A DNA stretch of 64,000 nucleotides, from assembly GCF_003334305.1 (NCBI RefSeq), contig NZ_QOWS01000017.1. The stretch is one strand, 5' to 3'. Below are positions 31,918 to 47,280 of the stretch, one piece after another; the first letter of the stretch is position 1, and the number at the start of each line of letters is the position of its first letter. Position numbers and translations under genes: made by a program. Origin of the DNA: Escherichia coli. GTDB taxonomy: Bacteria > Pseudomonadota > Gammaproteobacteria > Enterobacterales > Enterobacteriaceae. A model generated the notes under the pieces. It worked only from the letters and a program-made list of their open reading frames with translations, was not told the DNA's origin and made no database searches.

Positions 31918-32052
31918 TTAAAAAACGACACCCGAAAAATTAAATGTGCGTATTCGCGCAGGGATACGCACGTCTTCAGGAGACGCAGATATGCCTTATC
32001 AGTTAATGCAACCGGCACGGAATGCAGTCATCTGTCACAGGGAGGAAAGCAA

Positions 32053-32373
32053 ATGAAAACCCCCTTACCGCCCGTCTTACGCGCAGCCCTTTACCGTCGC
32101 GCTGTCGCCTGTGCCTGGCTGACCGTGTGCGAACGTCAGCACCGCTACCCGCATCTCACCCTTGAATCACTGGAGGCGGCCATCGCCGCTGAGCTGGAAG
32201 GCTTTTATCTGCGCCAGCACGGTGAGGAAAAAGGGCGTCAGATAGCCTGTGCCCTGCTGGAAGATTTAATGGAATCCGGCCCCCTGAAGGCCGCGCCGTC
32301 GCTGTCCTTTCTCGGGCTGGTTGTGATGGATGAACTCTGTGCCCGTCACATAAAAGCGCCGGTACTGCACTGA
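32053..32373 (+). CDS. conserved P4-family hypothetical protein upstream of alpha
   Basis: 106 aa with RBS gggagga. Same position, and as far as I recall the same length, as a P4 left-operon ORF. Confidence 0.55.
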
Positions 32374-32387
32374 AGGAGAACAACACC

Positions 32388-34721
32388 ATGAAAATGAACG
32401 TAACCGCCACCGTCAGCCATGCACTCGGCCACTGGCCGCGTATTCTCCCGGCGCTGGGGATTCAGGTGCTGAAAAACCGTCATCAGCCCTGTCCGGTCTG
32501 TGGCGGGAGTGACCGCTTCCGTTTTGATGACAGGGAGGGGCGCGGCACCTGGTACTGCAATCAGTGTGGTGCCGGTGACGGCCTGAAACTGGTTGAAAAG
32601 GTGTTTGGTGTTTCCCCGTCCGACGCGGCCGCAAAGGTGGCTGCCGTGACCGGCAGCCTGCCACCGGCTGACCCGGCAGTGACGGCCGCCGCCGTTGCTG
32701 AAACAGACGCTGCCCGGAAGAACGCCGCCACACTGGCACAAACCCTGATGGCGAAAACCCGTACCGGAACCGGTAACGCCTACCTGACCCGCAAGGGCTT
32801 TCCCGGCCGGGAATGCCGGATGCTGACCGGCACACACAGAGCCGGTGGCGTGAGCTGGCGCGCCGGTGACCTTGTGGTGCCACTGTATGACGACAGCGGC
32901 GAACTGGTTAACCTTCAGTTAATCAGTGCTGACGGCCGTAAGCGCACCCTGAAAGGCGGACAGGTCAGGGGCACCTGTCACACCCTTGAAGGACAGAATC
33001 AGGCCGGAAAACGTCTGTGGATAGCGGAGGGATACGCGACCGCACTTACCGTACATCACCTGACCGGTGAAACGGTGATGGTGGCGCTTTCTTCCGTGAA
33101 CCTCCTTTCTCTGGCCAGCCTTGCCCGGCAGAAGCATCCGGCCTGTCAGATTGTCCTTGCCGCAGACCGTGACCTCAGCGGTGACGGCCAGAAAAAAGCC
33201 GCCGCAGCCGCAGATGCGTGTGAGGGCGTTGTTGCCCTGCCGCCGGTCTTCGGTGACTGGAATGATGCCTTCACGCAGTACGGCGGGGAGGCCACCCGTA
33301 AGGCCATTTACGATGCCATCCGGCCACCGGCTGAAAGCCCGTTCGACACCATGAGCGAAGCAGAGTTTTCCGCCATGAGTACCAGCGAAAAGGCCATGCG
33401 TATCTATGAGCATTACGGTGAGGCGCTCGCGGTCGATGCCAACGGCCAGCTTCTGTCTCGCTATGAAAATGGTGTCTGGAAGGTGCTGCCGCCACAGGAC
33501 TTTGCCCGGGATGTGGCCGGGCTGTTTCAGCGTCTGCGCGCGCCGTTCTCCTCCGGGAAGGTGGCCTCCGTGGTGGACACCCTGAAGCTGATTATTCCGC
33601 AGCAGGAAGCCCCCTCCCGCCGCCTGATTGGCTTTCGTAACGGTGTGCTCGACACACAGAACGGCACGTTCCACCCGCACAGTCCGTCACACTGGATGCG
33701 CACCCTGTGCGATGTGGATTTCACCCCGCCGGTGGACGGTGAAACGCTGGAGACCCACGCCCCCGCGTTCTGGCGCTGGCTTGACCGTGCCGCCGGTGGC
33801 CGTGCGGAAAAACGCGACGTGATTCTGGCCGCACTGTTTATGGTGCTGGCAAACCGCTATGACTGGCAGCTCTTTCTGGAGGTGACCGGTCCCGGCGGCA
33901 GCGGCAAAAGTATCATGGCCGAAATAGCCACCCTGCTGGCCGGGGAGGATAACGCCACGTCGGCCACCATTGAGACGCTGGAATCCCCGCGTGAACGTGC
34001 CGCGTTAACTGGCTTCTCACTGATACGCCTGCCGGACCAGGAAAAATGGAGCGGCGACGGTGCCGGACTCAAGGCCATCACCGGCGGCGATGCGGTGTCC
34101 GTTGACCCGAAATACCGGGATGCATACTCCACGCATATCCCGGCGGTGATTCTGGCCGTGAACAATAACCCGATGCGCTTCACCGACCGCAGCGGCGGCG
34201 TGTCACGCCGGCGGGTGATTATTCACTTCCCGGAACAGATAGCCCCGCAGGAGCGCGACCCGCAGCTTAAGGACAAAATCACCCGCGAGCTGGCGGTCAT
34301 CGTGCGTCACCTGATGCAGAAGTTCAGCGACCCGATGCTCGCCCGGTCACTGCTTCAGTCCCAGCAGAACTCAGACGAGGCGCTGAACATCAAACGGGAT
34401 GCCGACCCGACGTTTGATTTTATCGGCTATCTGGAAACCCTGCCGCAGACCAGCGGCATGTATATGGGGAACGCCAGTATCATCCCGCGTAATTACCGTA
34501 AATACCTCTATCACGCCTATCTGGCCTACATGGAGGCAAACGGCTACCGGAATGTACTCAGTCTGAAAATGTTCGGGCTGGGGCTGCCGGTGATGCTGAA
34601 GGAATACGGACTGAATTACGAGAAGCGCCATACCAAACAGGGGATACAGACCAACCTGACGCTGAAAGAGGAAAGCTACGGCGACTGGCTGCCAAAATGT
34701 GACGACCCTGCAACAACCTGA
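32388..34721 (+). CDS. alpha: Alpha primase-helicase-origin binding protein
   Basis: 777 aa. Zinc-ribbon CPVCGGSDRFRFDD...WYCNQCG, TOPRIM primase region, Walker A GPGGSGKS helicase domain. Confidence 0.9.
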   Translation: MKMNVTATVSHALGHWPRILPALGIQVLKNRHQPCPVCGGSDRFRFDDREGRGTWYCNQCGAGDGLKLVEKVFGVSPSDAAAKVAAVTGSLPPADPAVTAAAVAETDAARKNAATLAQTLMAKTRTGTGNAYLTRKGFPGRECRMLTGTHRAGGVSWRAGDLVVPLYDDSGELVNLQLISADGRKRTLKGGQVRGTCHTLEGQNQAGKRLWIAEGYATALTVHHLTGETVMVALSSVNLLSLASLARQKHPACQIVLAADRDLSGDGQKKAAAAADACEGVVALPPVFGDWNDAFTQYGGEATRKAIYDAIRPPAESPFDTMSEAEFSAMSTSEKAMRIYEHYGEALAVDANGQLLSRYENGVWKVLPPQDFARDVAGLFQRLRAPFSSGKVASVVDTLKLIIPQQEAPSRRLIGFRNGVLDTQNGTFHPHSPSHWMRTLCDVDFTPPVDGETLETHAPAFWRWLDRAAGGRAEKRDVILAALFMVLANRYDWQLFLEVTGPGGSGKSIMAEIATLLAGEDNATSATIETLESPRERAALTGFSLIRLPDQEKWSGDGAGLKAITGGDAVSVDPKYRDAYSTHIPAVILAVNNNPMRFTDRSGGVSRRRVIIHFPEQIAPQERDPQLKDKITRELAVIVRHLMQKFSDPMLARSLLQSQQNSDEALNIKRDADPTFDFIGYLETLPQTSGMYMGNASIIPRNYRKYLYHAYLAYMEANGYRNVLSLKMFGLGLPVMLKEYGLNYEKRHTKQGIQTNLTLKEESYGDWLPKCDDPATT

Positions 34722-34728
34722 CCCACCT

Positions 34729-34753
34729 GACCGGCATCTGCCGGTCTTTTTTT
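34729..34753 (+). terminator. intrinsic terminator after alpha
   Basis: gaccggca-tc-tgccggtc followed by T7. Confidence 0.7.
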
Positions 34754-34767
34754 ATCCCTGAATTCCC

Positions 34768-35070
34768 CGAAGGTGAACAATCCACTGTTCACCCTTCACC
34801 GTATATTCACCCGTTATCACACTGAAATTAAAAGAGAAAAACGAAAGGTGAACAGTGTGAACAATCAAATCAAAAAAAACTTTTTTCTTCCTGAGTGATT
34901 TCAGCACGGGAAATTAATCCCCTGCACAAGTCACACCGGCAGAATGCCGGAGGTGAAGAATCGAATGTTCACCCTTCACCCATTATTCACCACCTATCCA
35001 ACTGAAATAAAAGGAGAAAACAGAAAGGTGAACAGTGTGAACAGTTCTTTCGAAAAAAAATTTTTTTCTT
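34768..35070. repeat. crr-like cis replication region: two ~120-bp direct repeats with TGTTCACC/GGTGAACA octamers
   Basis: 34768-34885 and 34948-35065 align nearly base for base (ggtgaa[c/g]aatc..tgttcacccttcacc..attcacc..gaaaggtgaacagtgtgaaca). About 4.8 kb from the ori cluster, as in P4. Confidence 0.75.
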
Positions 35071-35184
35071 ATTTTTAATTGTGCGAAAAACAAGCGACAC
35101 ACGCAGTGTGTATAGATATGTGTATAGTTATATTTTTTGAATATTATAATGTATTACAAATCAATGTGTTAGCTTGTAATATTC

Positions 35185-35205
35185 ACTCCTATTATCGGCA
35201 CCATC
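35185..35205. repeat. att core copy 2 (attR of P4-like element = attL of second island)
   Basis: Exact 21-bp copy of the thrW 3' end. Confidence 0.85.
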
Positions 35206-35270
35206 AAGAAAATCAATAACTTAGCTTAACTTCTCTAAGAAATTGTATCTTCTGTTATCACTTACAAACG

Positions 35271-35675
35271 CCTATACGTTGTTATGGGCTTTGGTAGTGT
35301 AACACGTATGGGCGAGTAGTTCCCAGGCTCAACCTCGTAACAAGTTCCTTTGAAGCTGGAAGACGTGCCACCGTCTCTAAACCTTCTACCAAAACTCTTA
35401 GCAAGATGTTCCACACCTGGCGCGGTGTCCAATGATGCTACACGTCGTGAGACGTTGCAGAGGATAAACAGGCTAAATGATGGGAAGAGTTTTAAGTGCA
35501 ATAGTGGATTAAAGCCCACCTCTTCAAAACCTAACTTGATCGGGAAAGAATCAAGCTCTAGCACGGTTTCGTCCACCGGAGTACAACGGGTGCCTGATAA
35601 GAGAAGAACTGCTAAGACTTCATAGCTTTTGTGAAAAAGCCCTTTTTAGTGGATACGCCTACGGCGCTTATTTTT
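35271..35675 (+). ncRNA. candidate structured non-coding RNA (class unknown)
   Basis: GC-enriched patch in AT-rich DNA. Contains a 13-bp hairpin (35271-35311), GUGA-capped hairpins (35442-35455 and 35625-35640), 6-bp helices (35484-35525 and 35535-35555), and a weak stem plus T6 at 35656-35676. The only ORFs here are two mutually antisense ones without RBS. Confidence 0.3.
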
Positions 35676-35808
35676 TGGTATAACCATCAAAGGCGCTTTA
35701 TGGCTCCTATTGTCTTGAAAATGTATCTTTACTTGTATTGTGTTTTATGCGTAGTCTCCCTGTGTAGTATGTAACTTGTTAATTTTCATATGAATACAGA
35801 GGCACACG

Positions 35809-35967
35809 ATGAAAAACATTGCAGCTATCAAACGGAATAACCGCAAGATTCACGCTCGTAAGTTCCTGTCTACGCCAGAAGGAAAAGCCTGGCTAGAGCG
35901 TAAACAGAGAGAAAACGAAGAAAGAAAACTCCTTAGTGAGTTGAAATGGCTTAGAGAGGATTTCTGA
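35809..35967 (+). CDS. small basic hypothetical protein (52 aa)
   Basis: MKNIAAIKRNNRKIHARKFLSTPEGKAWLERKQRENEERKLLSELKWLREDF. Weak RBS (gagg). Below the size cutoff of the ORF track. Confidence 0.3.
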   Translation: MKNIAAIKRNNRKIHARKFLSTPEGKAWLERKQRENEERKLLSELKWLREDF

Positions 35968-36310
35968 AAATCTCCAGAACGCAACAGGACGCATTCTAAC
36001 GCTGTTTTCATTACTCGGTATAGGGATTATAGGTGATGTGTGTTTAATGCGTCTGTGAGCTTGTTTTGTGCCTTATTTTGCATTTTCATAATGCAGGAGA
36101 GAACACGGAAAGCCTTAAAATTAATTATTGGGGTATTTAAGGCTATTTTTAGGTTATTTAAGGGTATTAAACTTGATTTAATTGATTGAAATATAAACAG
36201 ATAATTATGTATCTTATTGATTTATAAGGTTATTTTTAAATAAAGGTAAATAAAAAATAAATAGCCATAAATAGCTATAAATACATCTAAATACCTATAT
36301 CCCTTCCCTT

Positions 36311-36694
36311 ATGGCTAGATTGCGAGAAGTGCTTAACGCGATTTTCAGCGCCCCCCGATCTGGAAAATCCAGAATCCCCAAATATCAGCAAGGAATTTTC
36401 TTGCGTAATCAACATCGTTTTTACCTATTAAATCATTACACAGAAAGCCTTTCTGTAATGTCTCTCACTAAACTTTCACTAAACACGAGAATGATCGGTT
36501 TTATGTCGGATCAGATGCTAGAAATAGCACCACGTCTCACAAGGGCTGTAAGCGATGAAACCAGTGTTTATGCGGGTGCAGGTCAAAATATAGGCCAAAA
36601 TACATTTAACATAATAAACGTAATATGCACTAAGGAACACATAGAACGCCTTGAGTTGATGTATCAGGGGAAAAGTGGTGGATTTTTTACGTAG
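36311..36694 (+). CDS. hypothetical protein
   Basis: 127-codon ORF with no recognisable domain and no clear RBS. An internal start at MSLTKLSLNTR is possible. Confidence 0.3.
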   Translation: MARLREVLNAIFSAPRSGKSRIPKYQQGIFLRNQHRFYLLNHYTESLSVMSLTKLSLNTRMIGFMSDQMLEIAPRLTRAVSDETSVYAGAGQNIGQNTFNIINVICTKEHIERLELMYQGKSGGFFT

Positions 36695-36713
36695 GAGCAC
36701 GAGAGGGCTTCTA

Positions 36714-36741
36714 TTGACTTTTGTATGCTATGAAATATAAT
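36714..36741 (+). promoter_or_regulatory. candidate sigma70 promoter
   Basis: TTGACT - 16 nt - TATAAT. It overlaps the putative start of the 36730 ORF, so one of the two calls is probably wrong. Confidence 0.35.
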
Positions 36742-36999
36742 AGAAGGTTTTTTTATGTTGATAGTGATTGCACATTAAAGATTGAAAGCAAATTTAAACA
36801 TAAATTTTCAACACGTGAAAGAGAACTTGTTCGACAAATGATAAAACGTTTATTGAGCAACAATTTTGCAGTGATGCGCTATATGCCGAATTACACAAGG
36901 CTTTGCGAAAGTGATGTAAAAGTGAAGAAAGTAAGAATTGCAACTTTAAGCTACTTTTCATTGAATTTTTTAGTATGGAATTACACAGGAATAAGTTAG
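36730..36999 (+). CDS. hypothetical protein (doubtful)
   Basis: 89-codon ORF from ATG 36730. No domain recognised. The 3' end runs into the TTACAC motif field. Confidence 0.2.
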   Translation: MKYNRRFFYVDSDCTLKIESKFKHKFSTRERELVRQMIKRLLSNNFAVMRYMPNYTRLCESDVKVKKVRIATLSYFSLNFLVWNYTGIS

Positions 37000-37084
37000 G
37001 GATATTCTATGATTTACACAGGGAATATAGGGGGATTATGGCACACACATAGAAAGACATTACACAAAGTGCTATGTGACAAAT

Positions 37085-37305
37085 GGATGTAACGAGAGGT
37101 TACATTCAGCTATCTGAAATGCTCTCTGTAAGAAAGTTGGTAGTAACGATATGTTACATAGACTAATTATTGAATGTAACGATATTACACATCGGTAGTA
37201 ACGATACGTTACATCGACTAATTATTGAATGTAACGATATTACACATCGGTAGTAACGATACGTTACATCGACAGATGATTGGATGTAACGAAAGGTTAC
37301 ACAAT
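37085..37305. repeat. iteron array: 55-bp tandem repeats carrying GTAAC-N5-GTTAC palindromes
   Basis: Units at 37139-37193 and 37194-37248 differ at 2 positions. A third partial unit runs 37249-37302, with a further palindrome atgtaacgagaggttacat at 37087-37105. That makes about 7 palindromic or half-palindromic sites. Confidence 0.85.
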
Positions 37306-37500
37306 AAGACTATATTATTTATAATACTAAATAAAACTATATTAGATTATTAATTAGATCATAATAATATTCTTTATATCTATATATATGATCTTTTGCC
37401 TTCCGGCGTTAGCTTCACTCCCTGGCAAGCAGCCTTACTCCGCTACCTTTCGGGCTACGTTGGCTGGCCCGTTCCGCTCACACCGAAAGCAAAGCGTTAC

Positions 37501-37542
37501 TTTCTTCGTGTAACTATCGTGGCGGTAACGCCCACGAAGAAA
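37501..37542. other. long hairpin with GNRA-capped inner helix inside a GC-rich patch
   Basis: tttcttcgtg (37501-37510) pairs perfectly with cacgaagaaa (37533-37542). Inner ggcg-GTAA-cgcc at 37521-37532. Confidence 0.5.
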
Positions 37543-37624
37543 TACTATTGCGCTGTGCGCAGAAGAGTAATCACCTAACCAATCATAGATTGCTTATGTG
37601 TTAACTCTCTCTACCTCTTAATTC

Positions 37625-37776
37625 CACTTCCTACATTTAATAACTCTGTTATTCTCTGTAGTTGTGTAATTACTCGAAGAGAGAGCGGCTAAAGCTCAAT
37701 TACACTCTGCTTTCCTCGTGTAAGTTCACTAAGCCTCAATACAATTTCACTTCCTACATTCTGTAGTCGTGTAATT
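37625..37776. repeat. dispersed direct repeats (cacttcctacatt and ctgtagtYgtgtaatt)
   Basis: cacttcctacatt at 37625 and 37748. ctgtagttgtgtaatt at 37656 and ctgtagtcgtgtaatt at 37761. The modules are adjacent in copy B and 18 bp apart in copy A. Confidence 0.75.
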
Positions 37777-38398
37777 GTTTTCGGTGGAAAAGCCAGAGGC
37801 GACACCGAAAGAGAATTCTGATCTTATTAATCTTATCTATCTTAGTTAATCTTCTTACTTTATCTACTTTATTATTAATAATAGCTTTATAAGCTCTGTG
37901 TAGCTCTCTGACGCAAGAAACAGCATTCAGGAAGGGAATCACCTTAGAAAAGGTGTTCTTTGCGTCATAATGTGTTTTATGAAGGATTCAGAGGTGTTTC
38001 ATAACAGGAATGTATAGAGGATATTTTAATTAATTAAAAATAAGGGGTCTAAATGCTTCTCTAACAACATTAAGCAGGGTAGGGAATGGAAACGCATTGC
38101 CTACATATAATAAGCTCACTACAGGGCTTTACAGAGCGTTTTATAAAGTGACTCTCTGTTTTATATTTACCATTACCTTTTCATATACCTAACAAATACA
38201 AAATAAGCCCCTTCAATAAGCCTCTGGCGAGCGAAACAGCCATTAGATAAGGGAATGTATTGCTTTTATCAAAATCTCGTCAGAATGCGATTGAGAGTGT
38301 TTTAGCGGATAATGAAGAATAGCACTACATAGAAGAGCACGAATTGTTAAGCAAAATCATAACATACTGAAAAAGATCAGTTTTTTTGTGAAAAGGTA

Positions 38399-38427
38399 TT
38401 GACAAACGTCTCTTTCTGTGCAATAAT
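38399..38427 (+). promoter_or_regulatory. strong sigma70 promoter P1 (extended -10)
   Basis: TTGACA - 17 nt - TGcAATAAT, followed by agg-TATTAG-aGGGG. Paralogous to the promoter at 40928. Confidence 0.65.
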
Positions 38428-38486
38428 AGGTATTAGAGGGGACAGGAATAGATTCTTATCCTCTAAATAATTAAACCAATGCACCG

Positions 38487-38526
38487 CACTTTGAAGCCCA
38501 AGAGGCTTGCAAGGTGTTTTTTCTTT
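38487..38526 (+). terminator. intrinsic terminator ending the P1 leader
   Basis: Interrupted stem (acttt-g-aagcc / ggctt-gc-aaggt) followed by gTTTTTTCTTTT. Ends 29 nt before the first ATG of the operon. Confidence 0.6.
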
Positions 38527-38554
38527 TAACCAAATCGAATAAGGAGGCTAATTA

Positions 38555-38731
38555 ATGAAATATTTCACTCCACAGGATGTAGTAGAAGCCTGGAAACGTG
38601 GTGAGATCAACCGCTTTAAAGTAAGGATGTATAGAAACACCGCTCGCCGTTGTGGTTATCCAGAGCGTGAAAAATGTTTTGACGATGCACTGAAAATTAT
38701 TGATGAACTGCGTAAAGCTGAGAAAGAATAA
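38555..38731 (+). CDS. small hypothetical protein (58 aa)
   Basis: ATG preceded by aaggagg at optimal spacing. MKYFTPQDVVEAWKRGEINRFKVRMYRNTARRCGYPEREKCFDDALKIIDELRKAEKE. Missed by the 60-aa ORF cutoff. Confidence 0.55.
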   Translation: MKYFTPQDVVEAWKRGEINRFKVRMYRNTARRCGYPEREKCFDDALKIIDELRKAEKE

Positions 38732-38753
38732 TAGACAAGAGAAGGAGAAAACT

Positions 38754-38921
38754 ATGAGCGAAACTAAGAAACCAATTCCGCGCACTTACCTTCACGTTGA
38801 CCCTGAAATCTTCAAGGTTTTATTTGCTGAAGCCAAGAAAAGGCAAATTATGGTCAGTGATTTGATGTTAGAAATCATTACTGAAGCAGCAGAGAACATC
38901 AAACAAAAAAAGGGTAAGTGA
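38754..38921 (+). CDS. ribbon-helix-helix (Arc/CopG-like) DNA-binding protein
   Basis: 55 aa from the ATG after gaaggag. The pattern PRTYLHVDPEIFKVLFAEAKKRQIMVSDLMLEIITEAAENI fits strand-helix-helix. Confidence 0.5.
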   Translation: MSETKKPIPRTYLHVDPEIFKVLFAEAKKRQIMVSDLMLEIITEAAENIKQKKGK

Positions 38922-38974
38922 TCCTCATTCACTTTAGTAGCGCATTAAGCGTGATTTATAAGGAGATGATTCTA

Positions 38975-39718
38975 ATGTCTAAAATTAAATTGATTCGTGA
39001 AAAATACCAGTATGTTGATAAACAAACAGGAGAAATTAAAGACCGAACTTTGAATATACCGCATTACTTTTGTGAGATTGAATTTATCTACTCCTCAAGT
39101 GTTGATGGTGGAAAAGTTAAGTTTAGTGCAGAAATGCAAAAATTATATTGCTATGTTTCAGATTGGGAGAAATCAGGGGGGATATGTTTTGAAACACAAA
39201 CGAAGTTAAGTAAAGTTTGTGGCTGTAGCCGTAAGACAGTTAATGAACTGATTGGTCTTATGATTAAAATCGGTCTTTTAGAAGAGGTCGGAGAACGAAT
39301 TCCAAAACGTCCTTTAAAATTACGTGCGCTACCTCTCACAGATGCACATATTACTCCCCCAGGAGAATCATCACTCTCTGATCTTTCTGAGGCAGAAGAA
39401 GCACAGGAACAACCTAAAGGCCATAAACAGCCTTCTTTTGATGTTCTTGATGATTGGGATGCGCCTTTACCGTGGGAGACGGAAGAAACACCTGTTTCAT
39501 CAAGTGAAAAGGTAGCTAATGATAATGAGGAGGATGTATTAGAGAATTTTGCCTCTCTTATCATCCAGGAGAAACACACAAGAACAGGAGGAGCATCATT
39601 TATTGAGTTTGCAAATTCACTAGCTTATAGATACGGGCTAAAACGACCAAATGGTATTGAGGCATATTTTTCTAAGAATTACCCAAATGTATATGATGAA
39701 TTTGATATTCCCTTTTAA
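38975..39718 (+). CDS. wHTH replication-initiator-like protein with acidic linker
   Basis: Start after taaggag. The segment LYCYVSDWEKSGGICFETQTKLSKVCGCSRKTVNELIGLMIKIGLLEE resembles HTH_36-type plasmid/phage Rep N-domains (recalled pattern). Has an acidic D/E/S-rich middle. Confidence 0.45.
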   Translation: MSKIKLIREKYQYVDKQTGEIKDRTLNIPHYFCEIEFIYSSSVDGGKVKFSAEMQKLYCYVSDWEKSGGICFETQTKLSKVCGCSRKTVNELIGLMIKIGLLEEVGERIPKRPLKLRALPLTDAHITPPGESSLSDLSEAEEAQEQPKGHKQPSFDVLDDWDAPLPWETEETPVSSSEKVANDNEEDVLENFASLIIQEKHTRTGGASFIEFANSLAYRYGLKRPNGIEAYFSKNYPNVYDEFDIPF

Positions 39719-39729
39719 TAAGGAGGACT

Positions 39730-40009
39730 ATGATTCAATATTTAGTAAAAAAATCAAGTAGACAGAATTCAGTGTAATGACACAGGAAAACGCATCTACG
39801 AAACACTTGCTTACCTCTATAAAGGAAAGCCAACACCGCTAAAATATAGCGATGTGTTACATCGAGCAGGGTGCTCTGAAGCTGGTTTAAAATTCTGGCT
39901 GAAACAGCTATCAAATTTCGGTGTTATTGAAATGAAAGAGCTGTCTTTTTCTACATTCAATCTCAAAAGATTAGATAAAGAAATAGAATTCATCTATTCC
40001 ACTCTCTAA
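39730..40009 (+). pseudogene. wHTH protein gene interrupted by a frameshift in an A7 run (or using programmed slippage)
   Basis: Strong RBS taaggagg then ATG 39730. The frame closes at 39777. The +1 frame stays open to 40009 and encodes ...GKRIYETLAYLYKGKPTPLKYSDVLHRAGCSEAGLKFWLKQLSNFGVIEMKE. The switch point is A7 at 39747-39753. One fewer A gives a continuous 92-aa ORF. Confidence 0.5.
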
Positions 40010-40050
40010 AATCTCTCTATGTAATTAAAATATAAAAGGAAAACATTATT

Positions 40051-40170
40051 ATGATAGTAGCTATGTATTGGTTATTGTTCTTTCTCACGTTAGAAGCATA
40101 CTTTGGGGTGTTTTCCTTTAAAAGAAAAGGAAAAGTAAATAATGGCAAAAAGAAAAAACAACGTTGTTAA
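40051..40170 (+). CDS. small hydrophobic peptide with polybasic tail (39 aa)
   Basis: MIVAMYWLLFFLTLEAYFGVFSFKRKGKVNNGKKKKQRC: one TM helix plus a K-rich tail. RBS-like aagga 10 nt upstream. Overlaps the next ORF by 29 nt. Confidence 0.3.
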   Translation: MIVAMYWLLFFLTLEAYFGVFSFKRKGKVNNGKKKKQRC

Positions 40171-40558
40171 GAAAATCGGTGATTCAGCTTCTCTTCTAAG
40201 TAAACCTAAACCTAAATCTATTCTAAGACGTAAAGACTTTAAAGAGCTAGTTACGCTCACCAAGCAAAATAGCGCCCCTGGCGAATGGAAAACAGAGATC
40301 ATAGAACATTCTCCCTCTGTGCCTTGTGGAGATGAATTTAACGCCTTGCAAGAAATCTTATCTTCAACACCTGGCGTATTCTGGAAACCTAGAAAAAGAA
40401 AAGAGTATATCGTTGATAGCTCTGATTTACGCAAATACCAGATTTTAGGATTTGAAGATTATAACCACTACGTCGGTTATCTCGCCACCAATGGCCTAAA
40501 TAATTTAGTTCCTGAATTCCAAATTTTAGATAATGCTGATCACTATGGAGACTTTTAA
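40142..40558 (+). CDS. hypothetical protein with basic N-terminus
   Basis: 138 aa in the same orientation as the operon. No domain recognised. Confidence 0.5.
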   Translation: MAKRKNNVVKKIGDSASLLSKPKPKSILRRKDFKELVTLTKQNSAPGEWKTEIIEHSPSVPCGDEFNALQEILSSTPGVFWKPRKRKEYIVDSSDLRKYQILGFEDYNHYVGYLATNGLNNLVPEFQILDNADHYGDF

Positions 40559-40559
40559 T

Positions 40560-40898
40560 ATGAACAAAAACACGTATGACACAATTTATTCACTAATTAA
40601 TTATTATGAGGATGATTACCTCCTGCCTTTAAACCGCGCTGAACTTGAAGCATACAAAGAAAACACGCCAGGGGCGCTAAATGAGGCGTTTAAACACTGG
40701 GATTTAGCTGTGAATGCCTTTGAGCACCTTTCTAAAAGAGTAGAGATGCTCTGTAAGCGTGAAAACGCATACCTGACAGCCGATCAGATATGGGAGCTAT
40801 CAAACTGGATAGAAGATATTGAATCTGATGTTCGCTATGTAGGGGATGGCCTGGTTGAATTAGCTCAACGCTTAGGCGCTACTATCACAGAAGAATAA
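40560..40898 (+). CDS. hypothetical protein
   Basis: 112 aa from an ATG 2 nt after the upstream stop. Helical and acidic. No domain recognised. Confidence 0.5.
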   Translation: MNKNTYDTIYSLINYYEDDYLLPLNRAELEAYKENTPGALNEAFKHWDLAVNAFEHLSKRVEMLCKRENAYLTADQIWELSNWIEDIESDVRYVGDGLVELAQRLGATITEE

Positions 40899-40927
40899 AA
40901 AAAGCAACAAAAAAGTTGTAAAATATC

Positions 40928-40956
40928 TTGACATTCCATCTATTGTATGTTAATAT
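40928..40956 (+). promoter_or_regulatory. strong sigma70 promoter P2 (extended -10)
   Basis: TTGACA - 17 nt - TGtTAATAT, followed by aat-TATATA-GGGG. Same layout as P1. Confidence 0.65.
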
Positions 40957-41094
40957 AATTATATAGGGGTGATTATTTTTCCTTTATTGGTTCGATATTA
41001 AAAATTCTTCCTGTCATTAAAGGGGAGTAAAATCTCCGCTCCCCGCTTCTCCTCCTTAAGTAAATACTGTGTCATTATACCTCTTTTTTCCTTT

Positions 41095-41124
41095 GTTATG
41101 CATACATCTTGGAGTATGCATAAC
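41095..41124. other. perfect 10-bp inverted repeat in the P2 leader
   Basis: gttatgcata-catcttggag-tatgcataac. Confidence 0.6.
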
Positions 41125-41153
41125 ATAGGGTAATTACATAGGTATGAGTTAAT

Positions 41154-41185
41154 AAAAGGCGGCTCTAAATGCTGCCTTTTATTTT
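41154..41185 (+). terminator. intrinsic terminator ending the P2 leader
   Basis: aaaaggcggc-tctaaat-gctgcctttt (10 bp including one G-U) followed by ATTTT. Ends 63 nt before ATG 41248. Confidence 0.65.
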
Positions 41186-41247
41186 GCCCGTTATGCAACT
41201 TAAAAGTTGTATTTCTTACTTTAAAAAAGGTAACAAGGTTTATATAA

Positions 41248-41460
41248 ATGTTGTTTTTAAACGATAAAGAGCAAATCATCAAGTATAAAGATGAAATGCT
41301 GAAAATTAATCCACAAATTACCGAAATGGTAGCTAAATACGCTGGGTGTTCTGTCGAGGAAGTAGAAAGATGTGTTGAAAAATATTTTTCTCCTTCTACT
41401 CCGTCTACACCTTCCCTTAATGAATTAATCAAATTAAAAGCTAAGGAGATTACTAAATGA
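41248..41460 (+). CDS. small hypothetical protein
   Basis: 70 aa. First gene after the P2 leader. The stop overlaps the next start (ATGA). Confidence 0.5.
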   Translation: MLFLNDKEQIIKYKDEMLKINPQITEMVAKYAGCSVEEVERCVEKYFSPSTPSTPSLNELIKLKAKEITK

Positions 41461-41819
41461 TTATTGATTTAGACACTCTGTTTCCAGTTAGAAAGACTTT
41501 CACAGATATTGTAAGTTATTGTACTGATCCGTTTGCCTCTGTAGAAAGCAAGGTTTTTGCTTCTCTTCCTGCTGATGTTGAGTGCGGCGACTTGATCACC
41601 AGTACTGGCGCTAAATATGAATCAGGAGATGATATCTATGTTGTTATGAGTGAATTTGTAACGGCTGGAGAAAACAAGCCTGTAGATGTGCTACGTAGTA
41701 ATGCTGGTCTTGTCTGCATCAAAGCTGATGCGCTGAATGCTGTAAGTGAAGCAGCAAAAACAGCATTAATTAAAAAAGGCTTCCAGCTTGAAGGGTTCCA
41801 TTCTGTTTTCACTTCTTAA
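41457..41819 (+). CDS. head-decoration-like protein (lambda D-like position and size)
   Basis: 120 aa directly upstream of the capsid-like gene. The size and G-rich beta-type pattern loosely resemble lambda gpD-type decoration proteins. The call is based on synteny. Confidence 0.4.
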   Translation: MIIDLDTLFPVRKTFTDIVSYCTDPFASVESKVFASLPADVECGDLITSTGAKYESGDDIYVVMSEFVTAGENKPVDVLRSNAGLVCIKADALNAVSEAAKTALIKKGFQLEGFHSVFTS

Positions 41820-41837
41820 TAAAAGGAATAATAATAA

Positions 41838-42869
41838 ATGATTCTAGGTAATGATTACGTTGATTTAGCTCCGCTTTTCCAGGCACACAGCACTAGAAAC
41901 TTTCTGCTCTCTACCCTCGACTTCACTGATCCGGTGGGCGTTAGTTCTCATAAAGTAGCTGTTTCTCAGCTTGTCGAAAGCAACGAATCTCTGTTCAACA
42001 AAGAAACCTCTCGTTTCTCTTCTGAACACAATGTTACTAAGCGTGAACAAGGTAAAGAATGGCTGATTGAAATCCCGTATTTTCTTCGTGAAGATGTGAT
42101 CCGTCCTTCTGATGTTCAAGGCAAGCGTAAGCCTGGCACTGATTTTCAGGAAACACTCACTGATATCTATGCGGAATATATCGCTAAACACCACGTAGCG
42201 TATCAGCGTACAAAAGAGAGCGTGTTGGCTGCATCTCTGTTTAGCGGTAAAACTTACACGCCTAAAACTGATGATGTTCTTATCGAGTGGGGCAAGCTGT
42301 TTAACGTGGCACCTATGAAAGCCACCTTGAACGCTTCCAGCACTGACACAATGACCGTTTTCAAGCAATTTGACCAGCTTGCTACGGATATGATTGCTAA
42401 GGCACAAAACCAGGCTGCAACCATTGAGCGTGTTGTTGTGTTCTGTAAACCTGCGGCATTCAACGCTATTCGTTACAGTGTTGGTATGGTCAATGCTTTC
42501 CAATATGCAAGCCCTGTAGACGATGCCAACGTGGTGTTTAATGTGCGTTCCCTGCTACCAGGTGTAACTACTTTCACCATTCCAGGAACTAACATTGACC
42601 TGATCAAAGTGACTGATCCGCTACACCTTGCACATATGGCTTCTGATGCGGTTGCTGTGCCTAAATTCGCTAAGGGGGCAGGTGTTTACCAATCTATCTA
42701 TGGGGCAGCTTCCAGCACCTTTGAACTGATCAATGCCGCTCCTGCTGAGGTGTATAGCTATAGCTATGAATCTTCTTCTCGTGGTGATGCTGTTAACGTT
42801 GTTACAGAGAATAGCCAGATGGTGGTAAACCACGGCGTTGGTTTCTCCGTTCAAATCACTGTTAAATAA
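41838..42869 (+). CDS. major capsid protein, lambda gpE-like family (putative)
   Basis: 343 aa (lambda gpE is 341 aa). N-terminal LAPLFQAHSTRNFLLSTLDF resembles the P.TFLLDTFF motif I recall from Phage_cap_E proteins. RBS aaaggaa. Followed by a strong terminator. Confidence 0.5.
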   Translation: MILGNDYVDLAPLFQAHSTRNFLLSTLDFTDPVGVSSHKVAVSQLVESNESLFNKETSRFSSEHNVTKREQGKEWLIEIPYFLREDVIRPSDVQGKRKPGTDFQETLTDIYAEYIAKHHVAYQRTKESVLAASLFSGKTYTPKTDDVLIEWGKLFNVAPMKATLNASSTDTMTVFKQFDQLATDMIAKAQNQAATIERVVVFCKPAAFNAIRYSVGMVNAFQYASPVDDANVVFNVRSLLPGVTTFTIPGTNIDLIKVTDPLHLAHMASDAVAVPKFAKGAGVYQSIYGAASSTFELINAAPAEVYSYSYESSSRGDAVNVVTENSQMVVNHGVGFSVQITVK

Positions 42870-42887
42870 TATTTTAACGTGTAATAG

Positions 42888-42922
42888 AGGCGTGGCGTGA
42901 ATAACACGCTTCGCCTTTTTTT
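42888..42922 (+). terminator. intrinsic terminator after the capsid-like gene
   Basis: aggcg-tg-gcgtg aataa cacgc-tt-cgcct followed by T6. Confidence 0.7.
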
Positions 42923-42955
42923 ATTTATTTTTAAATTTTGAGAGGTGATTAAAAT

Positions 42956-43159
42956 ATGGAAGTGATTCTGAAATCAAAAAATGGTGTACACGTTTATTTA
43001 GATGCTAATGATTCAAGAGGCTTGTTAAATCTGAAATATCTATGTTCTCTCTTGGATGTTCCATATGAAGGCGTAAAAGCCCGAATGTTCAGATTAAACG
43101 AGAGTATTGATCAAGCTCTACACCATTTCTTAAGCAAAGAAGGTGGTAAAAATGATTAA
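42956..43159 (+). CDS. small hypothetical protein (possible HTH)
   Basis: 67 aa with RBS gagagg. The segment LKYLCSLLDVPYEGVKARMFRLNESIDQAL looks HTH-like. Confidence 0.45.
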   Translation: MEVILKSKNGVHVYLDANDSRGLLNLKYLCSLLDVPYEGVKARMFRLNESIDQALHHFLSKEGGKND

Positions 43160-43173
43160 TAAGGGGATTTTAA

Positions 43174-45012
43174 ATGTTAGAAATTAACACTTCTAAAATT
43201 AAGAACACAGTAACATTTAGTGTAGATAAAGACAGCTTGAAAAAAGCGAAAGACTCTATTACAGGCTTAAAGGAATTCACAGAAAACATCAAGCCAGCTA
43301 AATTAAGGTTTGATAGTGTCACTAAAGGCTATAAGAAAGCACAAAGCGAAGTAGACAAGATTGCTCAACAGAAAGCTAAAACAGAAAAGCAGAATCAAAG
43401 AGCACAAGCTGCCGCAGCAAGAGCACAGGCAAGGCAACAGACACAAATAGCAGCACGTAAAGAGAAAGCAGAATTAAAGCTCCTCGATGTGTCAAGCTCT
43501 ATCAGTGCAATGCACCGCCTCTCTGTAGCGGAACAATACAAAGCTATTGCACAGGCTAGAGAGATAGCAAAACAATATGAGCAAGGGGCTATCTCGCTTG
43601 CACGTATGAATAGTCAGATGAAACGCCTACAACAGCAACAACGTAAGATTAATGGCAACAGAAAAGCTCAATTAGCCCCCGTTAAGGGAGGAGGATCAGG
43701 GAATTCCGCCACGATGGGTGCTCTGTTATTTGGAGGCGCTACAGCGGCTGCTGGCGTGATGGCTGTTAGTAAAGCGTCGGAGTTTGTTAGTAACAGTTTC
43801 GCTAACGCAGAGACACAAGGTGAGCTAATTCAACGTGCAAGGCTTGGCGGTGTAGACGTTAACCAGATGTACAACATTACAGAATGGGCCTATAGAAACG
43901 GCGTTGACTCTATGATGGGTGATCAAGGGGCTAGGAAATACCTGGATCAGATGAAAGATGTTAGGGAACGTGCCGCAAAATCCTATAGTGAAGCTGAATA
44001 TGTAGTCGATAAAAAAACTGGTAAAGGCGGCGAATGGAAAGGCGGTGATAACGCTATTAATGAACTTCTAAACATCGGTGTTATTAACAAGAGCGACCTT
44101 AAAAAATTTGCTGATAATCCAGCCGGATTAATTTCTAAGGCTGTTAATGGAATGATGAAAAAAGGGTTTTCAGACTCCCAAATTGGACAACGTTTAGAAG
44201 ACCTGGGTGATGATTTGATGCTTACATCAAAATATTGGCAACGTTCCGTTAAAGATGTACAAACAAGCATCGAGCAGCAAAAAGCCTCTGGAAAATGGCT
44301 AACAGAAACACAGCAAGATTCTATTGTTAAATTCAGAGAACTAAACAGACAGCTTTCACAGCTTTCTGATGCAAGACAAGTAGCATTTGTAGACGGCTTT
44401 ATGAAATCTCTCGATCCAAAAGTAACGGAAGAGTTTATGAAAAACCTTTCTAATCTCACTCCGTATTTTACAAAGCTGGGAGAAGCTACAGGAAGTCTCT
44501 TTGAAGCTATTATGAAGATTGTAAACTGGTTTAATCGTAATGATGATAAGACAGATGCTATTCAGAAAAATTTAGGTGATGCACCGCCATTAAGCAATGA
44601 AGGAATGAAACAGAATCTTTCTAATCTCGTTCCTGATCAATATAAAGGCGCTGGCACCGGAACAACTAAGCCAGATAACAGCAATTCCCTGTTTAACACT
44701 ATTAAGGGATTGCTTTTCGATGATAAGTCTTCTTCTGTGTCAGATGTAAAAATGTCAGTCAGCGAAGCACCGATAACCAATCTCAAACAGGGCGCTTTAA
44801 ATAATCTTGCAATGACAACTCCGGCTTATAATTTATCTCCTGTGTTTAATCTGAATCCTACATTTGAAGTGGTAACAGAGGTTCCTCTTACTATTAATTC
44901 TGACACATCAAGATTAAGCGATTATGTGGATTTTACAGCGAGATCAAGTCGGGATAGCTTCTTGAAATCATTAACATTAACCAGCTTATCAGGACAATCT
45001 AACGGCGGGTAA
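43174..45012 (+). CDS. tape-measure-like protein
   Basis: 612 aa. N-terminal Q/A/K-rich coiled coil, Gly-rich hydrophobic segment GGGSGNSATMGALLFGGATAAAGVMAV, then a long helical region. This composition is typical of tail tape measure proteins. Confidence 0.45.
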   Translation: MLEINTSKIKNTVTFSVDKDSLKKAKDSITGLKEFTENIKPAKLRFDSVTKGYKKAQSEVDKIAQQKAKTEKQNQRAQAAAARAQARQQTQIAARKEKAELKLLDVSSSISAMHRLSVAEQYKAIAQAREIAKQYEQGAISLARMNSQMKRLQQQQRKINGNRKAQLAPVKGGGSGNSATMGALLFGGATAAAGVMAVSKASEFVSNSFANAETQGELIQRARLGGVDVNQMYNITEWAYRNGVDSMMGDQGARKYLDQMKDVRERAAKSYSEAEYVVDKKTGKGGEWKGGDNAINELLNIGVINKSDLKKFADNPAGLISKAVNGMMKKGFSDSQIGQRLEDLGDDLMLTSKYWQRSVKDVQTSIEQQKASGKWLTETQQDSIVKFRELNRQLSQLSDARQVAFVDGFMKSLDPKVTEEFMKNLSNLTPYFTKLGEATGSLFEAIMKIVNWFNRNDDKTDAIQKNLGDAPPLSNEGMKQNLSNLVPDQYKGAGTGTTKPDNSNSLFNTIKGLLFDDKSSSVSDVKMSVSEAPITNLKQGALNNLAMTTPAYNLSPVFNLNPTFEVVTEVPLTINSDTSRLSDYVDFTARSSRDSFLKSLTLTSLSGQSNGG

Positions 45013-45046
45013 TTCCCGCCATAACATTACAAGGAAAATTATTATT

Positions 45047-45760
45047 ATGGCGACCGCCGGGATTTTAACCATACGTGCAGCAAATACTCCAGAACAACAC
45101 GTTCAGGCTGTTTACAAAGCAGAACAAGATATAAATTCTACAAAAAACGAAAATAGCAAAGCTAATAAAACAAAAGGAGAGAACGGATTTGCTATTGTTA
45201 CCAGTGGCTTGGCATCTTCTGGCAATGACGTTTATGAAAATTATATGGCCCTGGCCTTTGACAGTGTAGACGATGTGAACGTGAGACGTTCGGCAGATGT
45301 CACAAGCTACCCCGTAGAAAATGGTGCTACTGTGTCTGATCACGTTCAAATTAAAAACAATAAGTTTTCTCTTAAAGGAAGGATCACTGAAACACCGATT
45401 AAAAGCGATCCTGGCTTGTTAAAGAGTGCAGGGGTGAACGGGAACAGAAGATCATTAGCCATAGACTACTTGAATCAGATTATGGACAGTAGACAGCCTT
45501 TTCTTCTTGTTACAGAAAATAAAACTTTTGAGAACGTTGTTTTAACAGGCATCGAATACACAGAAGAGGCAAGCGAATCCCTGGTATTTGATCTTAGCTT
45601 TGAGCAGATCAGATTAGTTTCTTATGGCACTGTATCCACTATTGCACTTAAAACACAACCATCTAAGAACATCGGGGCGAATATGAAAAAACGTGTTAAC
45701 ACTGAAAAATCAAGTAGTGAAGGTGAAGACACTATTACTCCTGCCTTTAAGCAGAAATAG
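45047..45760 (+). CDS. putative virion (tail-lumen / tube-initiator-like) protein
   Basis: 237 aa directly after the TMP-like gene. The motif VTSYPVENGATVSDHVQIKNNKFSLKGRITE recalls the (H)EYPGRD..VEDLG...S..G pattern of Mu gp43-type tail proteins. The resemblance is weak. Confidence 0.3.
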   Translation: MATAGILTIRAANTPEQHVQAVYKAEQDINSTKNENSKANKTKGENGFAIVTSGLASSGNDVYENYMALAFDSVDDVNVRRSADVTSYPVENGATVSDHVQIKNNKFSLKGRITETPIKSDPGLLKSAGVNGNRRSLAIDYLNQIMDSRQPFLLVTENKTFENVVLTGIEYTEEASESLVFDLSFEQIRLVSYGTVSTIALKTQPSKNIGANMKKRVNTEKSSSEGEDTITPAFKQK

Positions 45761-45841: not shown

Positions 45842-47206
45842 TTATGGCGTTGTTTTACGCCTTAAATTTGATTTTTTATTGATTGATAAGCCTTTCTCTA
45901 TTTCAGGGTAGCGTAGAAGCTCAATATAGTTTTTAAGCTCTACTGGAGAAGCTGCATTCTTGCTATATGTGCGGAATGTCTCTGTATTGCCGCGTGTATG
46001 GCCCAGGAGAAGGGCGATCCTGTCTTCTGGAATTTGATTTCGATCAAGAAGCTGTGCTACTCCGTGTCTCAGAGAATGAAACACTTTCCTTTCTGTTCCC
46101 TTTTCCCCTAAAGCCTTTCGTTTAGCTCTTGTAAATCTCTGCGTGTGCCACGTGGAACGTTTACCATCAGCACGCTCTGTAATGCTGGCGTGATAGAACA
46201 AAAAGCCATTATGAGGCTTTTCACGCAGCGACAACACCAACGGAGTGATAAGGCTATGTACAGGCACAACACGTGCCGCAGCTTTCGTTTTTCCCTGTGT
46301 GATTTCAAAACACAGCACACCTTCGATCTCTTTCACATCGTCTATTGTGAGACTTGCTATCTCATTGATCCGCATACCTGTATATAAACCGATAAGACAC
46401 AAAGCCATCATTTCTTTGTTTTCTGCTGAATTACCGGAAAATACTTGCAACACCTGCAATAGCTCTTTGTTAGAAAATGCCTCGTAGCTCTCTCTACTTT
46501 GTGCCACATCAAGCCTATGCCCTCGCCAGGGGGAGAGCGCCCTTTCTGGCGCATCGTGGTAACGTGATGAAGCTAACTCCCATAGCTGGGCTATTGGGCT
46601 GATATAATTTGCAATTGATTGTTGTGAAAGAGTTTTTTGCATGTGTTCTATCCAGCCTGTAACAGTGGTGCGGCTCACATCTTGCAATGCAATATCAGGC
46701 TTTTTACGGTAGGAGAGAAACATCTCTACCGCTTTTCTTGCCTTAGCTAAAGTGGCTGGCTTCTTCTTCGTGCTGTTAATTGTCAGGTAGATTTCAAGAA
46801 TTTTAAGCAATGACGGACACGAAGACGCTGTATCTTGCATTCTGGTAGCTGTTTTGGCGTATTTAGCCTTACTGCGTAACAGCTCCAGCGTGTTCTCTAT
46901 TGTGCTGTTTACAGGGGCGACACTCTCCCGTAGGCAATGGTATTCATCTGCAATCTGATCACGCTTTCTACGTGCAACACGAAGATTATTTGTGTGTAGA
47001 CTTCTGACAAACGTCCTTTTTCCTTCAAAAAAGGGCTGCATATACACAGGCAGCGTGATCCTTAAATAGTAGTTACCGTAAGAATCACAGATTAAGTATT
47101 GGTTAGGCTTGTATCTCATAAAATCTCCGGCTAAAGTGTCGGAGCGTTTGTAATGTGAAAATTGATTGTAACGCATAGAAAATGATAATTTTTCTATAAG
47201 ATTCAA
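45842..47206 (-). CDS. tyrosine recombinase/integrase of the second island (K-12 IntF-like position)
   Basis: 454 aa. Catalytic R (TGMRINEIASL), HxLRH (FHSLRHGVAQLL) and HTRGNTETFRTYSK (H...Y). N-terminal YYLRITLPVYMQPFFEGKRTFVRSLHT arm-type domain. Adjacent to the thrW-like fragment, as intF-ptwF is in K-12 (recalled). Confidence 0.85.
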   Translation of the reverse strand: MNLIEKLSFSMRYNQFSHYKRSDTLAGDFMRYKPNQYLICDSYGNYYLRITLPVYMQPFFEGKRTFVRSLHTNNLRVARRKRDQIADEYHCLRESVAPVNSTIENTLELLRSKAKYAKTATRMQDTASSCPSLLKILEIYLTINSTKKKPATLAKARKAVEMFLSYRKKPDIALQDVSRTTVTGWIEHMQKTLSQQSIANYISPIAQLWELASSRYHDAPERALSPWRGHRLDVAQSRESYEAFSNKELLQVLQVFSGNSAENKEMMALCLIGLYTGMRINEIASLTIDDVKEIEGVLCFEITQGKTKAAARVVPVHSLITPLVLSLREKPHNGFLFYHASITERADGKRSTWHTQRFTRAKRKALGEKGTERKVFHSLRHGVAQLLDRNQIPEDRIALLLGHTRGNTETFRTYSKNAASPVELKNYIELLRYPEIEKGLSINKKSNLRRKTTP

Positions 47207-47217: not shown

Positions 47218-47280
47218 TGGTCGTAGGTGATGGCATTAACACGAGATTAATCGAGTGTTTTACTCCTATTATCGCACCAT
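47218..47280 (+). pseudogene. thrW-like tRNA 3' fragment / degenerate att core copy 3 (ptwF-like)
   Basis: ggtcgtaggt (as thrW 23328-23337), then 34 nt of unrelated sequence (47228-47261), then actcctattatcg-caccat (thrW 3' end with a 1-nt deletion). Confidence 0.65.

Follow-up and report, generated by a model that had tools for sequence, protein, structure and literature searches.

The 64-kb stretch of Escherichia coli DNA studied here (contig NZ_QOWS01000017.1; hereafter the window, with positions counted from its first nucleotide) shows 100% identity to strain A7 (NZ_CP028767) and carries a 12.1-kb island of 37% GC between the attachment sites attL (from 35186) and attR (to 47279). The order of the island is iterons, a promoter (P1), operon 1, a second promoter (P2), operon 2 and, on the opposite strand, an integrase gene. 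Nearly all of its genes are annotated in RefSeq as hypothetical, and the P1-to-P2 region is present in 672 of 5426 complete E. coli genomes (about 12%). Each of the two promoters leads into a structured leader that ends in a predicted intrinsic terminator (t1 and t2) ahead of the operon. Judged from the sequence and its relatives, the arrangement is real and conserved; its regulatory logic is of a known kind, and the satellite family that carries it is uncharacterised and apparently new. Features lie on the plus strand unless stated otherwise.

P1 (38399–38427) is a predicted sigma-70 promoter composed of TTGACA (38399–38404), a 17-nt spacer, TGc (38419–38421) and AATAAT (38422–38427), with a consensus-scan score of 11/12 and the TG in place. 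After the -10 come TATTAG (38431–38436) and GGGG (38438–38441). The start region and 5'-terminal hairpin (TATTAGAGGGG, 38431–38464) include a predicted start near 38434–38436 and, by folding, a hairpin at 38437–38464. The whole leader of about 90 nt folds at -26.8 kcal/mol (z-score -3.2); in it the 5' hairpin is joined by an A/U-rich single-stranded linker to a terminator whose U tail is long. This terminator, t1 (38486–38527), is a hairpin at 38486–38517 (-16.2 kcal/mol) followed by UUUUUCUUUU, and the first ribosome-binding site (RBS) and ATG (38555) of operon 1 lie about 25 nt past it. Ahead of P1, at 38367–38380, is the sequence CTGAAAAAGATCAG, which includes a GATC site, appears IHF-like by eye and, in variant form, precedes the P1 -35 of most relatives; its role may be regulatory or architectural.

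P2 (40928–40956) begins 30 nt past the stop codon of a gene for a 112-amino-acid (aa) protein. It consists of TTGACA (40928–40933), a 17-nt spacer, TGt (40948–40950) and TAATAT (40951–40956), scores 10/12 with the TG, and is followed by TATATA (40960–40965) and GGGG (40966–40969). Its leader is about 225 nt long and folds at -69.2 kcal/mol (z-score -5.9). The leader body (40960–41153) opens with the start motif TATATAGGGG and continues through a pairing segment, a pyrimidine tract (41046–41058, including CUCCUCCUUA) and a hairpin. Mutually exclusive pairings had been proposed for this leader, and GGGGAG is indeed able to pair with either CUCC or CUCCCC within 41022–41045; the perfect inverted repeat reported at 41095–41124 is present as well, with arms of 11 bp and not 10 bp. 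t2 (41154–41185) has the form AAAAGGCGGC-loop-GCUGCCUUUU (41154–41180, -14.2 kcal/mol) followed by AUUUU, with four further U held in the stem, and the RBS and ATG (41248) of operon 2 are about 65 nt downstream. Transcription leaving operon 1 would also meet t2 as its first terminator. A third predicted terminator, t3 (42886–42925; -19.6 kcal/mol, then a U-run), stands directly after the capsid gene and is kept in the related loci L012, L007 and L009. The consensus promoter scan revealed no promoter between t3 and the tail-like genes.

All of the P1 and P2 features listed in the initial annotation of this DNA were found exactly at their positions, and the energies and U tracts of t1 and t2 agree with its view that each leader ends in a canonical terminator before the first RBS. 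A simple terminator scan did not report t1 or t2, because of a bulge and an A-U-rich stem base; both were called from folds and energies. The pattern TTGACA-N14-TG-N-NANNAT is matched only by P1 and P2 on both strands of the window, where 0.07 matches are expected, and none of 100 shuffles contained two or more. The proposal that the two modules are paralogous is not supported: 346 of 500 dinucleotide shuffles equal or exceed their best local alignment, and 283 of 500 do so for the leaders alone.

Operon 1 (38555–40898) contains six genes. These specify a 58-aa protein (ATG 38555), a 55-aa protein that is ribbon-helix-helix-like by eye, a replication-initiator-like helix-turn-helix (HTH) protein recognised by family scans (38975–39718), the product of a disrupted small winged-HTH gene (39731–40009), a 138-aa protein with a basic N-terminus (40142–40558) and the 112-aa protein, modelled as a three-helix bundle (40560–40898). 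The first part of operon 2 (41248–42869) specifies a 70-aa protein, a 120-aa protein and the major capsid protein of the Phage_cap_E family (41838–42869). The distal part (42956–45760) specifies a 67-aa protein (42956–43159), located between t3 and the tape-measure-like gene, which could act as a small DNA-binding regulator or determine packaging specificity; family scans identified the remaining two products as a tape-measure-like protein (43174–45012) and a Dit-like, that is tail-tube-initiator-like, protein (45047–45760). The tyrosine integrase gene (45842–47206) is on the minus strand. Terminase and portal genes were not found on the island in family scans of its proteins. The small gene at 39731–40009 is an intact 91-aa open reading frame (ORF) in L012, looks disrupted here, and is not annotated as a coding sequence in strain A7. 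The homologue of the 67-aa protein in locus L006 gave a sub-threshold match to a sigma-70 region-4 HTH (E = 0.03).

Relatives of the island were taken from genomes, metagenomes and viral contigs; among them are Escherichia, Citrobacter, Kluyvera, Buttiauxella, Scandinavium and Enterobacter, and Klebsiella is found among the protein matches. Comparison of their sequences supports the conservation of one layout – strong promoter, structured leader, intrinsic terminator, operon – across many related islands, including those whose leaders are not homologous. The P1 module is present in 642 E. coli genomes at 79–100% identity, and the set of P1 relatives comprised 51 distinct usable leaders upstream of the first gene. 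All 51 possess TTGAC(A/T), a spacer of 17 or 18 nt and a good -10, in most cases extended by TGn; a hairpin, of differing sequence, is found at the predicted start of most, and the RBS comes after the terminator hairpin. A canonical terminator is located 25–62 nt before the start codon in 42 of them. Within an alignment of 22 leaders the t1 stem shows compensatory double changes at 5 of 11 pairs, one broken pair in 242 cells and two invariant G-U pairs; the compensatory changes together with the invariant G-U pairs indicate that the structure lies in the plus-strand RNA. L006 and L007 have unrelated terminators at the t1 position. Some relatives align to the P1 region only from position 60, and an invertible promoter switch was considered for these and rejected, as they carry a diverged promoter variant at the same place.

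The P2 leader of the window type is found in 307 E. coli genomes at 91–100% identity. Its 31 distinct variants show no change in the -35, the GGGGAG/CUCCCC segment, the 11-bp arms of the hairpin or the stem of t2; the -10 has a single-base change in two of them, and insertions and deletions fall between the conserved elements and not in them. The sigma-70 -35 and -10 are kept in about 60 P2 variants overall. There are three leader types, of about 220 nt, about 945 nt and 520–700 nt, and in each the members examined open with an extended -10 promoter right behind a gene of roughly 100 aa. The leader of about 945 nt, from other E. coli islands, has no detectable similarity to the window type; it starts with TTGCAT-17-TATAAT-aa-TATTAGGGG, and a terminator lies about 230–260 nt downstream. 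The 520–700-nt leader belongs to other genera, where an extended -10 promoter comes straight after the stop codon of a roughly 100-aa gene, and an equivalent promoter after such a gene is present in most relatives examined. By nhmmer this long type is without homology to either E. coli type. It contains at least 14 helices, several of which, the terminator among them, are rich in compensatory pairs (7 of 8 and 5 of 10 in the best). The long leaders are noncoding and extend from the P2-equivalent promoter to the capsid operon (L006, 8740–9400; L007, 8750–9393; L009; L008; about 25 metagenome loci). A terminator 33–80 nt before the first ATG of the capsid operon was predicted in 38 of 42 distinct relatives, and on this comparison P2/t2 is conserved as an architecture and not as a sequence. 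No Rfam match was obtained at E <= 1 over 34.5–47.5 kb of the window, or at gathering thresholds in five related loci; phage DNA gave no match to the P2 leader, and neither the P1 nor the P2 leader sequence occurred in any phage record searched.

The hexamers TATTAG and TATATA had been described as second -10-like elements resembling the lambda pause element. A -10-like element is required in Q and AlpA systems, in the latter with A at hexamer position 2 and T at position 6; mutating A2 or T6 impaired AlpA antitermination (PMC9371919). Position 6 is not T in either island hexamer, and the distance from the start of the -10 to that of the hexamer is only 9 bp, compared with 11–13 bp in PalpB and lambda. 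Nor is the hexamer conserved: it is TATATG in 10 of the 31 window-type P2 variants, and TTATAG, GATAAG or AGTAGG in other genera. Its role as a sigma-dependent pause element is not supported by these comparisons, and the specific Q-type pause reading of the initial annotation is the least supported. The check on conservation that it had suggested came out in two ways, the terminators being kept in most relatives (with covariation in t1) and the second hexamer not. What is kept is TA[GA][GA]G, 4–12 nt past the -10: against a background of 5%, it occurs in 35 of 51 P1 leaders and, for P2, in 26 of 29 leaders of the long type and 21 of 31 of the window type. This motif, and with it the second hexamer and the G4, is read as the predicted transcription start plus the G-run that would form the 5' arm of the 5'-terminal hairpin. 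A promoter for a single-subunit phage RNA polymerase, suggested by the likeness of TATAGGG to the T7 start, was dropped, as the upstream part misfits by eye and the promoters of the presumed helper phages are sigma-70-like.

One link to these putative helpers is through the tail proteins. The Dit-like protein shows 61% identity to gp015, and the tape-measure-like protein 28–55% identity to gp014, of phage alia. These identities extend to about 130–400 other phage records, mostly Stephanstirmvirinae of ~145–150 kb (the phi92/phAPEC8 group); the resemblance is to ~147-kb virulent myoviruses (Justusliebigvirus and Phapecoctavirus). For the capsid protein of the island, a set of 50,697 phage records contained nothing closely related. 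A second link is at 36320–36360, where about 40 nt show 93.5% identity to about 56 Stephanstirmvirinae phages. The phi92 counterpart spans nt 343, at which the annotated left direct terminal repeat (343 bp) has its inner end. Its core is present in the same orientation in 26 fetched E. coli islands and absent from the recombinase-bearing loci L012 and L013; it may be a helper packaging or cutting site carried by the island. The P2 leader was itself considered as a cos or pac site and rejected, there being no phage DNA match and the helper-like site lying elsewhere, at 36320–36360. With attachment-site repeats, an integrase, a replication-initiator-like gene and iterons, parts that match a helper, and neither terminase nor portal gene found, the island is, by its sequence, most likely a satellite of virulent phi92-like myoviruses (Stephanstirmvirinae). 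No description of the island, or of satellites of phi92-like phages, was found in the literature.

The genome of alia (NC_052655; 78–88 kb and 55 kb) contains at least 12 early promoters of the form TTGACA-16/17-(-10)-GTATCAC-ATAG(G/A)GCGG, followed by a G+C-rich 5' hairpin and then the RBS. Of 68 promoter-like sites, 13 have the motif, where the background is 4% (p = 5e-6), and no published description of this promoter class was found. The start motif and 5'-hairpin design of P1 and P2 are common to the alia early promoters, which, unlike P1 and P2, are followed by no terminator.

attL (35186–35203) duplicates 18 nt from the 3' end of tRNA-Thr (thrW), which lie at 23341–23358 within the real tRNA gene (thrW, 23283–23358), and in other strains the island directly adjoins thrW. 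attR (47262–47279; ACTCCTATTATCG-CACCA) is an imperfect repeat of attL. The interval 23359–35203 is occupied by a P4-like satellite at thrW, in tandem with the island, which specifies an Icd-like protein, a derepression protein and, as its last gene (ending at 34721), alpha primase, and which includes a block of 33–36% GC at 24–28 kb; two different satellites are therefore found at one tRNA site. The left end of the island (35204–38398, ~3.2 kb) has a single annotated gene, of 52 aa, where the related loci L012 and L013 instead have a gene for a ~180-aa serine recombinase. Upstream of P1 are seven iterons (37084–37301, strand not assigned) with the palindromic core GTAACGAnAnGTTAC, which probably constitute the replication origin of the island. 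They adjoin an AT-rich stretch. At 37395–37580, inside an AT-rich gene-free region, is a G+C-rich piece whose core shows 95% identity to a Citrobacter island (L009, 5719–5783); the flanks are unrelated, and the fold is not better than that of shuffles (z-scores -1.2 and -2.0). Relatives also possess iteron-like TAAC-N6-GTTA palindromes just past t2, represented in the window by CAAC-N6-GTTG at 41196–41209.

A switch acting on the terminators was sought in the leaders and among the island proteins. Folding with the 3' arm of t1 or t2 blocked left the 5' arm without a meaningful partner, and no riboswitch- or attenuator-type competitor for the terminator arms was found in the P1 and P2 leaders. 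The only leader ORF, a 16-codon candidate leader peptide at 38479–38529 (MHRTLKPKRLARCFFF), was rejected, having no Shine-Dalgarno sequence and an ATG that is absent from several related leaders. With no alternative fold and no credible leader peptide, read-through would be either constitutive leakage or factor-dependent; beyond leakage it would need a factor, in line with the antitermination idea raised at the outset. The 138-aa protein belongs to a universally conserved family of ~130 aa whose basic N-terminus resembles KERNxIxRIE by eye, with no match to the N family; the type of N-terminus does not follow the type of P1 hairpin, and L010 lacks a protein of this kind and keeps t2. No convincing boxA was seen in the leaders, and comparison of the island proteins with defence systems gave no match of note. 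Pairing between the P1 and P2 leaders (GACAGGAA/UUCCUGUC) was considered and rejected, since the changes found among relatives do not restore the pairing and the leader types of P1 assort independently of those of P2. The small RNAs (sRNAs) Esr41/EcOnc of O157 were likewise set aside; Esr41 is in SpLE1, and Sakai is without the island at thrW.

The reading that we favour, tentatively and with somewhat less than even confidence, is that unconditional termination gates both operons and that a trans-acting processive antiterminator linked to helper infection opens them. Each transcript would start at the A or G in TA(R)(R)GGG, form its 5'-terminal hairpin at once and reach an unconditional terminator after about 90 nt (P1) or about 220 nt (P2), just before the first RBS. 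Most transcripts would end at t1 or t2, and the replication operon under P1 and the capsid/tail operon under P2 would be held at a low basal level without a classical repressor. Full expression would consist of RNA polymerase reading through t1, t2 and t3, under an antiterminator made or triggered on helper infection and either helper-encoded or a product of operon 1. Since a strong t3 follows the capsid gene and the scan showed no promoter ahead of the tail genes, processive read-through would be needed, and the succession of t1, t2 and t3, all of which have to be passed, points to processive antitermination by a trans-acting factor. A fuller version, which we think rather unlikely as a whole, would make the islands a new satellite family of phi92-like myoviruses across Enterobacterales, with the leader terminators as helper-sensing gates; a helper early factor would confer resistance to termination on transcripts beginning with AUAG(R)G and a 5' hairpin, so that replication and then capsid/tail genes come on within minutes of lytic infection.

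Several points weigh against gating opened by an antiterminator. Start sites, termination efficiency and read-through are all predictions from sequence. The hairpin is kept with a weak U tract in 9 of the 51 P1 leaders and in 4 of the 42 P2 leaders, and the most distant relative, L010 (36% capsid identity), has the P1 promoter and is without t1; the gate is therefore not universal. No island protein matched the Q, N, AlpA or NusG/RfaH families in Pfam, NCBIfam or PHROG, and no antiterminator was identified, a helper-encoded factor not having been searched for exhaustively. The idea in the initial annotation of an antiterminator captured from a helper has gained a concrete helper link, through the tail genes and the terminal-repeat boundary, and no antiterminator to go with it. 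The model of the 138-aa protein is of low confidence (predicted local distance difference test, pLDDT, 57), and the confidently modelled three-helix bundle of the 112-aa protein (pLDDT 89) has only generic structural neighbours. Terminators after capsid genes are common in phages, including alia, and are no proof of antitermination. The shared start motif is 1–3 nt nearer the -10 in the island than in the helper early promoters, and its sharing with the helper could reflect selection for stable 5' ends. Lastly, silencing of the AT-rich P1 and P2 might be due instead to H-NS or to a repressor that escaped notice.

The short terminated RNAs (about 90 nt from P1, about 220 nt from P2) could themselves be the functional products, as sRNAs or as an immunity RNA like the P4 CI RNA, with read-through amounting to basal expression. 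We give this a small but real chance, and it can coexist with the gating of the operons by termination. The P1 leader has, by its predicted fold, textbook anatomy for an Hfq-type sRNA; a CA-rich motif like AAUC(C/A)AAAUCA is kept by eye in the linker upstream of t1 in several divergent leader types; 5'-terminal hairpins stabilise RNAs; and a very strong promoter running into a terminator is wasteful unless the RNA matters. Set against these are the absence of an Rfam match and the position of the terminator, always just upstream of an operon without a promoter of its own. Moreover, the leaders keep architecture and not sequence, the P1 hairpins and some linkers differing among relatives, which is unusual for a seed-driven sRNA.

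It is unlikely that t1 and t2 are fixed attenuators or insulators without any switch, t2 ending operon 1 and t1 ending transcription across the origin, with induction coming from relief of H-NS, copy number after excision or takeover by the helper. The position of t2 as the first terminator after operon 1 fits such a role, as do the weak U tracts or missing t1 of some relatives, and the structural module of alia is rich in intergenic terminators, some of them followed by a sigma-70 promoter (tape-measure protein gene, terminator, promoter, Dit-like gene). However, the island order is promoter then terminator, the reverse of that in the helper, which means that it is the island's own transcripts that hit the terminator, and this order, with the two 90–700 nt apart, is kept in nearly all relatives despite complete turnover of the leader sequence.

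Loading of a DNA-bound antiterminator of Q/AlpA type, at a sigma-dependent pause formed by the second hexamer and GGG, is very unlikely. The layout does resemble lambda PR'-6S RNA-tR', with the end of a small gene immediately before P2 in the place of Q, and an element near the start is possible since the PalpB -10-like element, at -1 to +5, overlaps the start (PMC9371919). To the missing T6, the 9-bp distance and the poor conservation of the hexamers must be added that the P1 and P2 spacers agree at only 4 of 14 positions and offer no common candidate binding element, that A2/T6 hexamers further downstream are at chance expectation in AT-rich sequence, and that the island has no Q or AlpA homologue. 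An HK022 put-type mechanism, in which the leader hairpins would act in cis to make polymerase from P1 and P2 terminator-resistant so that t1 and t2 stop only upstream transcripts, is highly improbable: the hairpin is always right at the 5' end of the transcript and the long P2 leaders are elaborately structured and covarying, but the 5' hairpins vary widely in sequence among relatives, and resemble neither put RNAs nor any Rfam family, and on this scheme both strong promoters would be fully active in uninfected cells.

If operon gating by termination is true, a common E. coli island would be kept silent without a repressor, by the early end of its own strongly initiated transcripts, and a factor associated with infection by a virulent phage would turn it on. 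A termination-based induction circuit would then be added to satellite biology outside the lambdoid, P4 and AlpA cases, and a widespread element, annotated until now almost entirely as hypothetical, would become accessible to study. The 520–700-nt structured leaders of the related genera would be additions to the catalogue of uncharacterised RNAs. A named helper group (phi92, alia and phAPEC8-like isolates) makes the mechanism directly testable.

Among known systems, the put RNAs of HK022 are two conserved stem-loops acting in cis on RNA polymerase; the island leaders are structured, unrelated in sequence and without an Rfam match at E <= 1. Late control in lambda runs from PR' through the 6S RNA (194 nt) to tR', with Q as the antiterminator. 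The island is alike in having a constitutive strong promoter directly downstream of a small gene in the regulatory position, a predicted terminated transcript of roughly 200 nt, and a terminator before the structural operon with more inside it. It is unlike lambda in having no Q homologue or recognisable Q-binding element, in a hexamer that fails the A2/T6 rule and is not conserved, in placing a gate before the replication operon also, and in being tied to a virulent myovirus and not to a lambdoid phage.

AlpA-family proteins also control phage-inducible islands of E. coli. In the AlpA-PalpB-tB system of Pseudomonas aeruginosa an intrinsic terminator is bypassed by a small processive antiterminator (PMC7969949, PMC9371919). 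The succession of promoter and intrinsic terminator is the same in the island, which differs in possessing no AlpA-family protein and no counterpart of the AlpA-binding site, and in a -10-like element that lacks the T6 required with AlpA. Immunity in P4 depends on the constitutive PLE promoter, the CI RNA and premature termination, through pairing of the processed CI RNA with seqA/seqC. Both elements would keep a replication operon off by early termination in the leader, without a protein repressor, and the P4 leader RNA is stable; unlike P4, the island has as its terminator a plain hairpin and U tract with no alternative fold, and no C4/CI match in Rfam.

The PLE of Vibrio cholerae is a small integrated island whose helper, ICP1, is virulent. 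We know of no description of leader-terminator gating of operons for PLE, and the two differ in that there is no sequence relationship between them and in that the E. coli island encodes its own capsid protein. They are alike as small integrated islands, the E. coli island being apparently tied to a virulent myovirus and carrying tail proteins that match those of its helper together with a putative packaging-related site.

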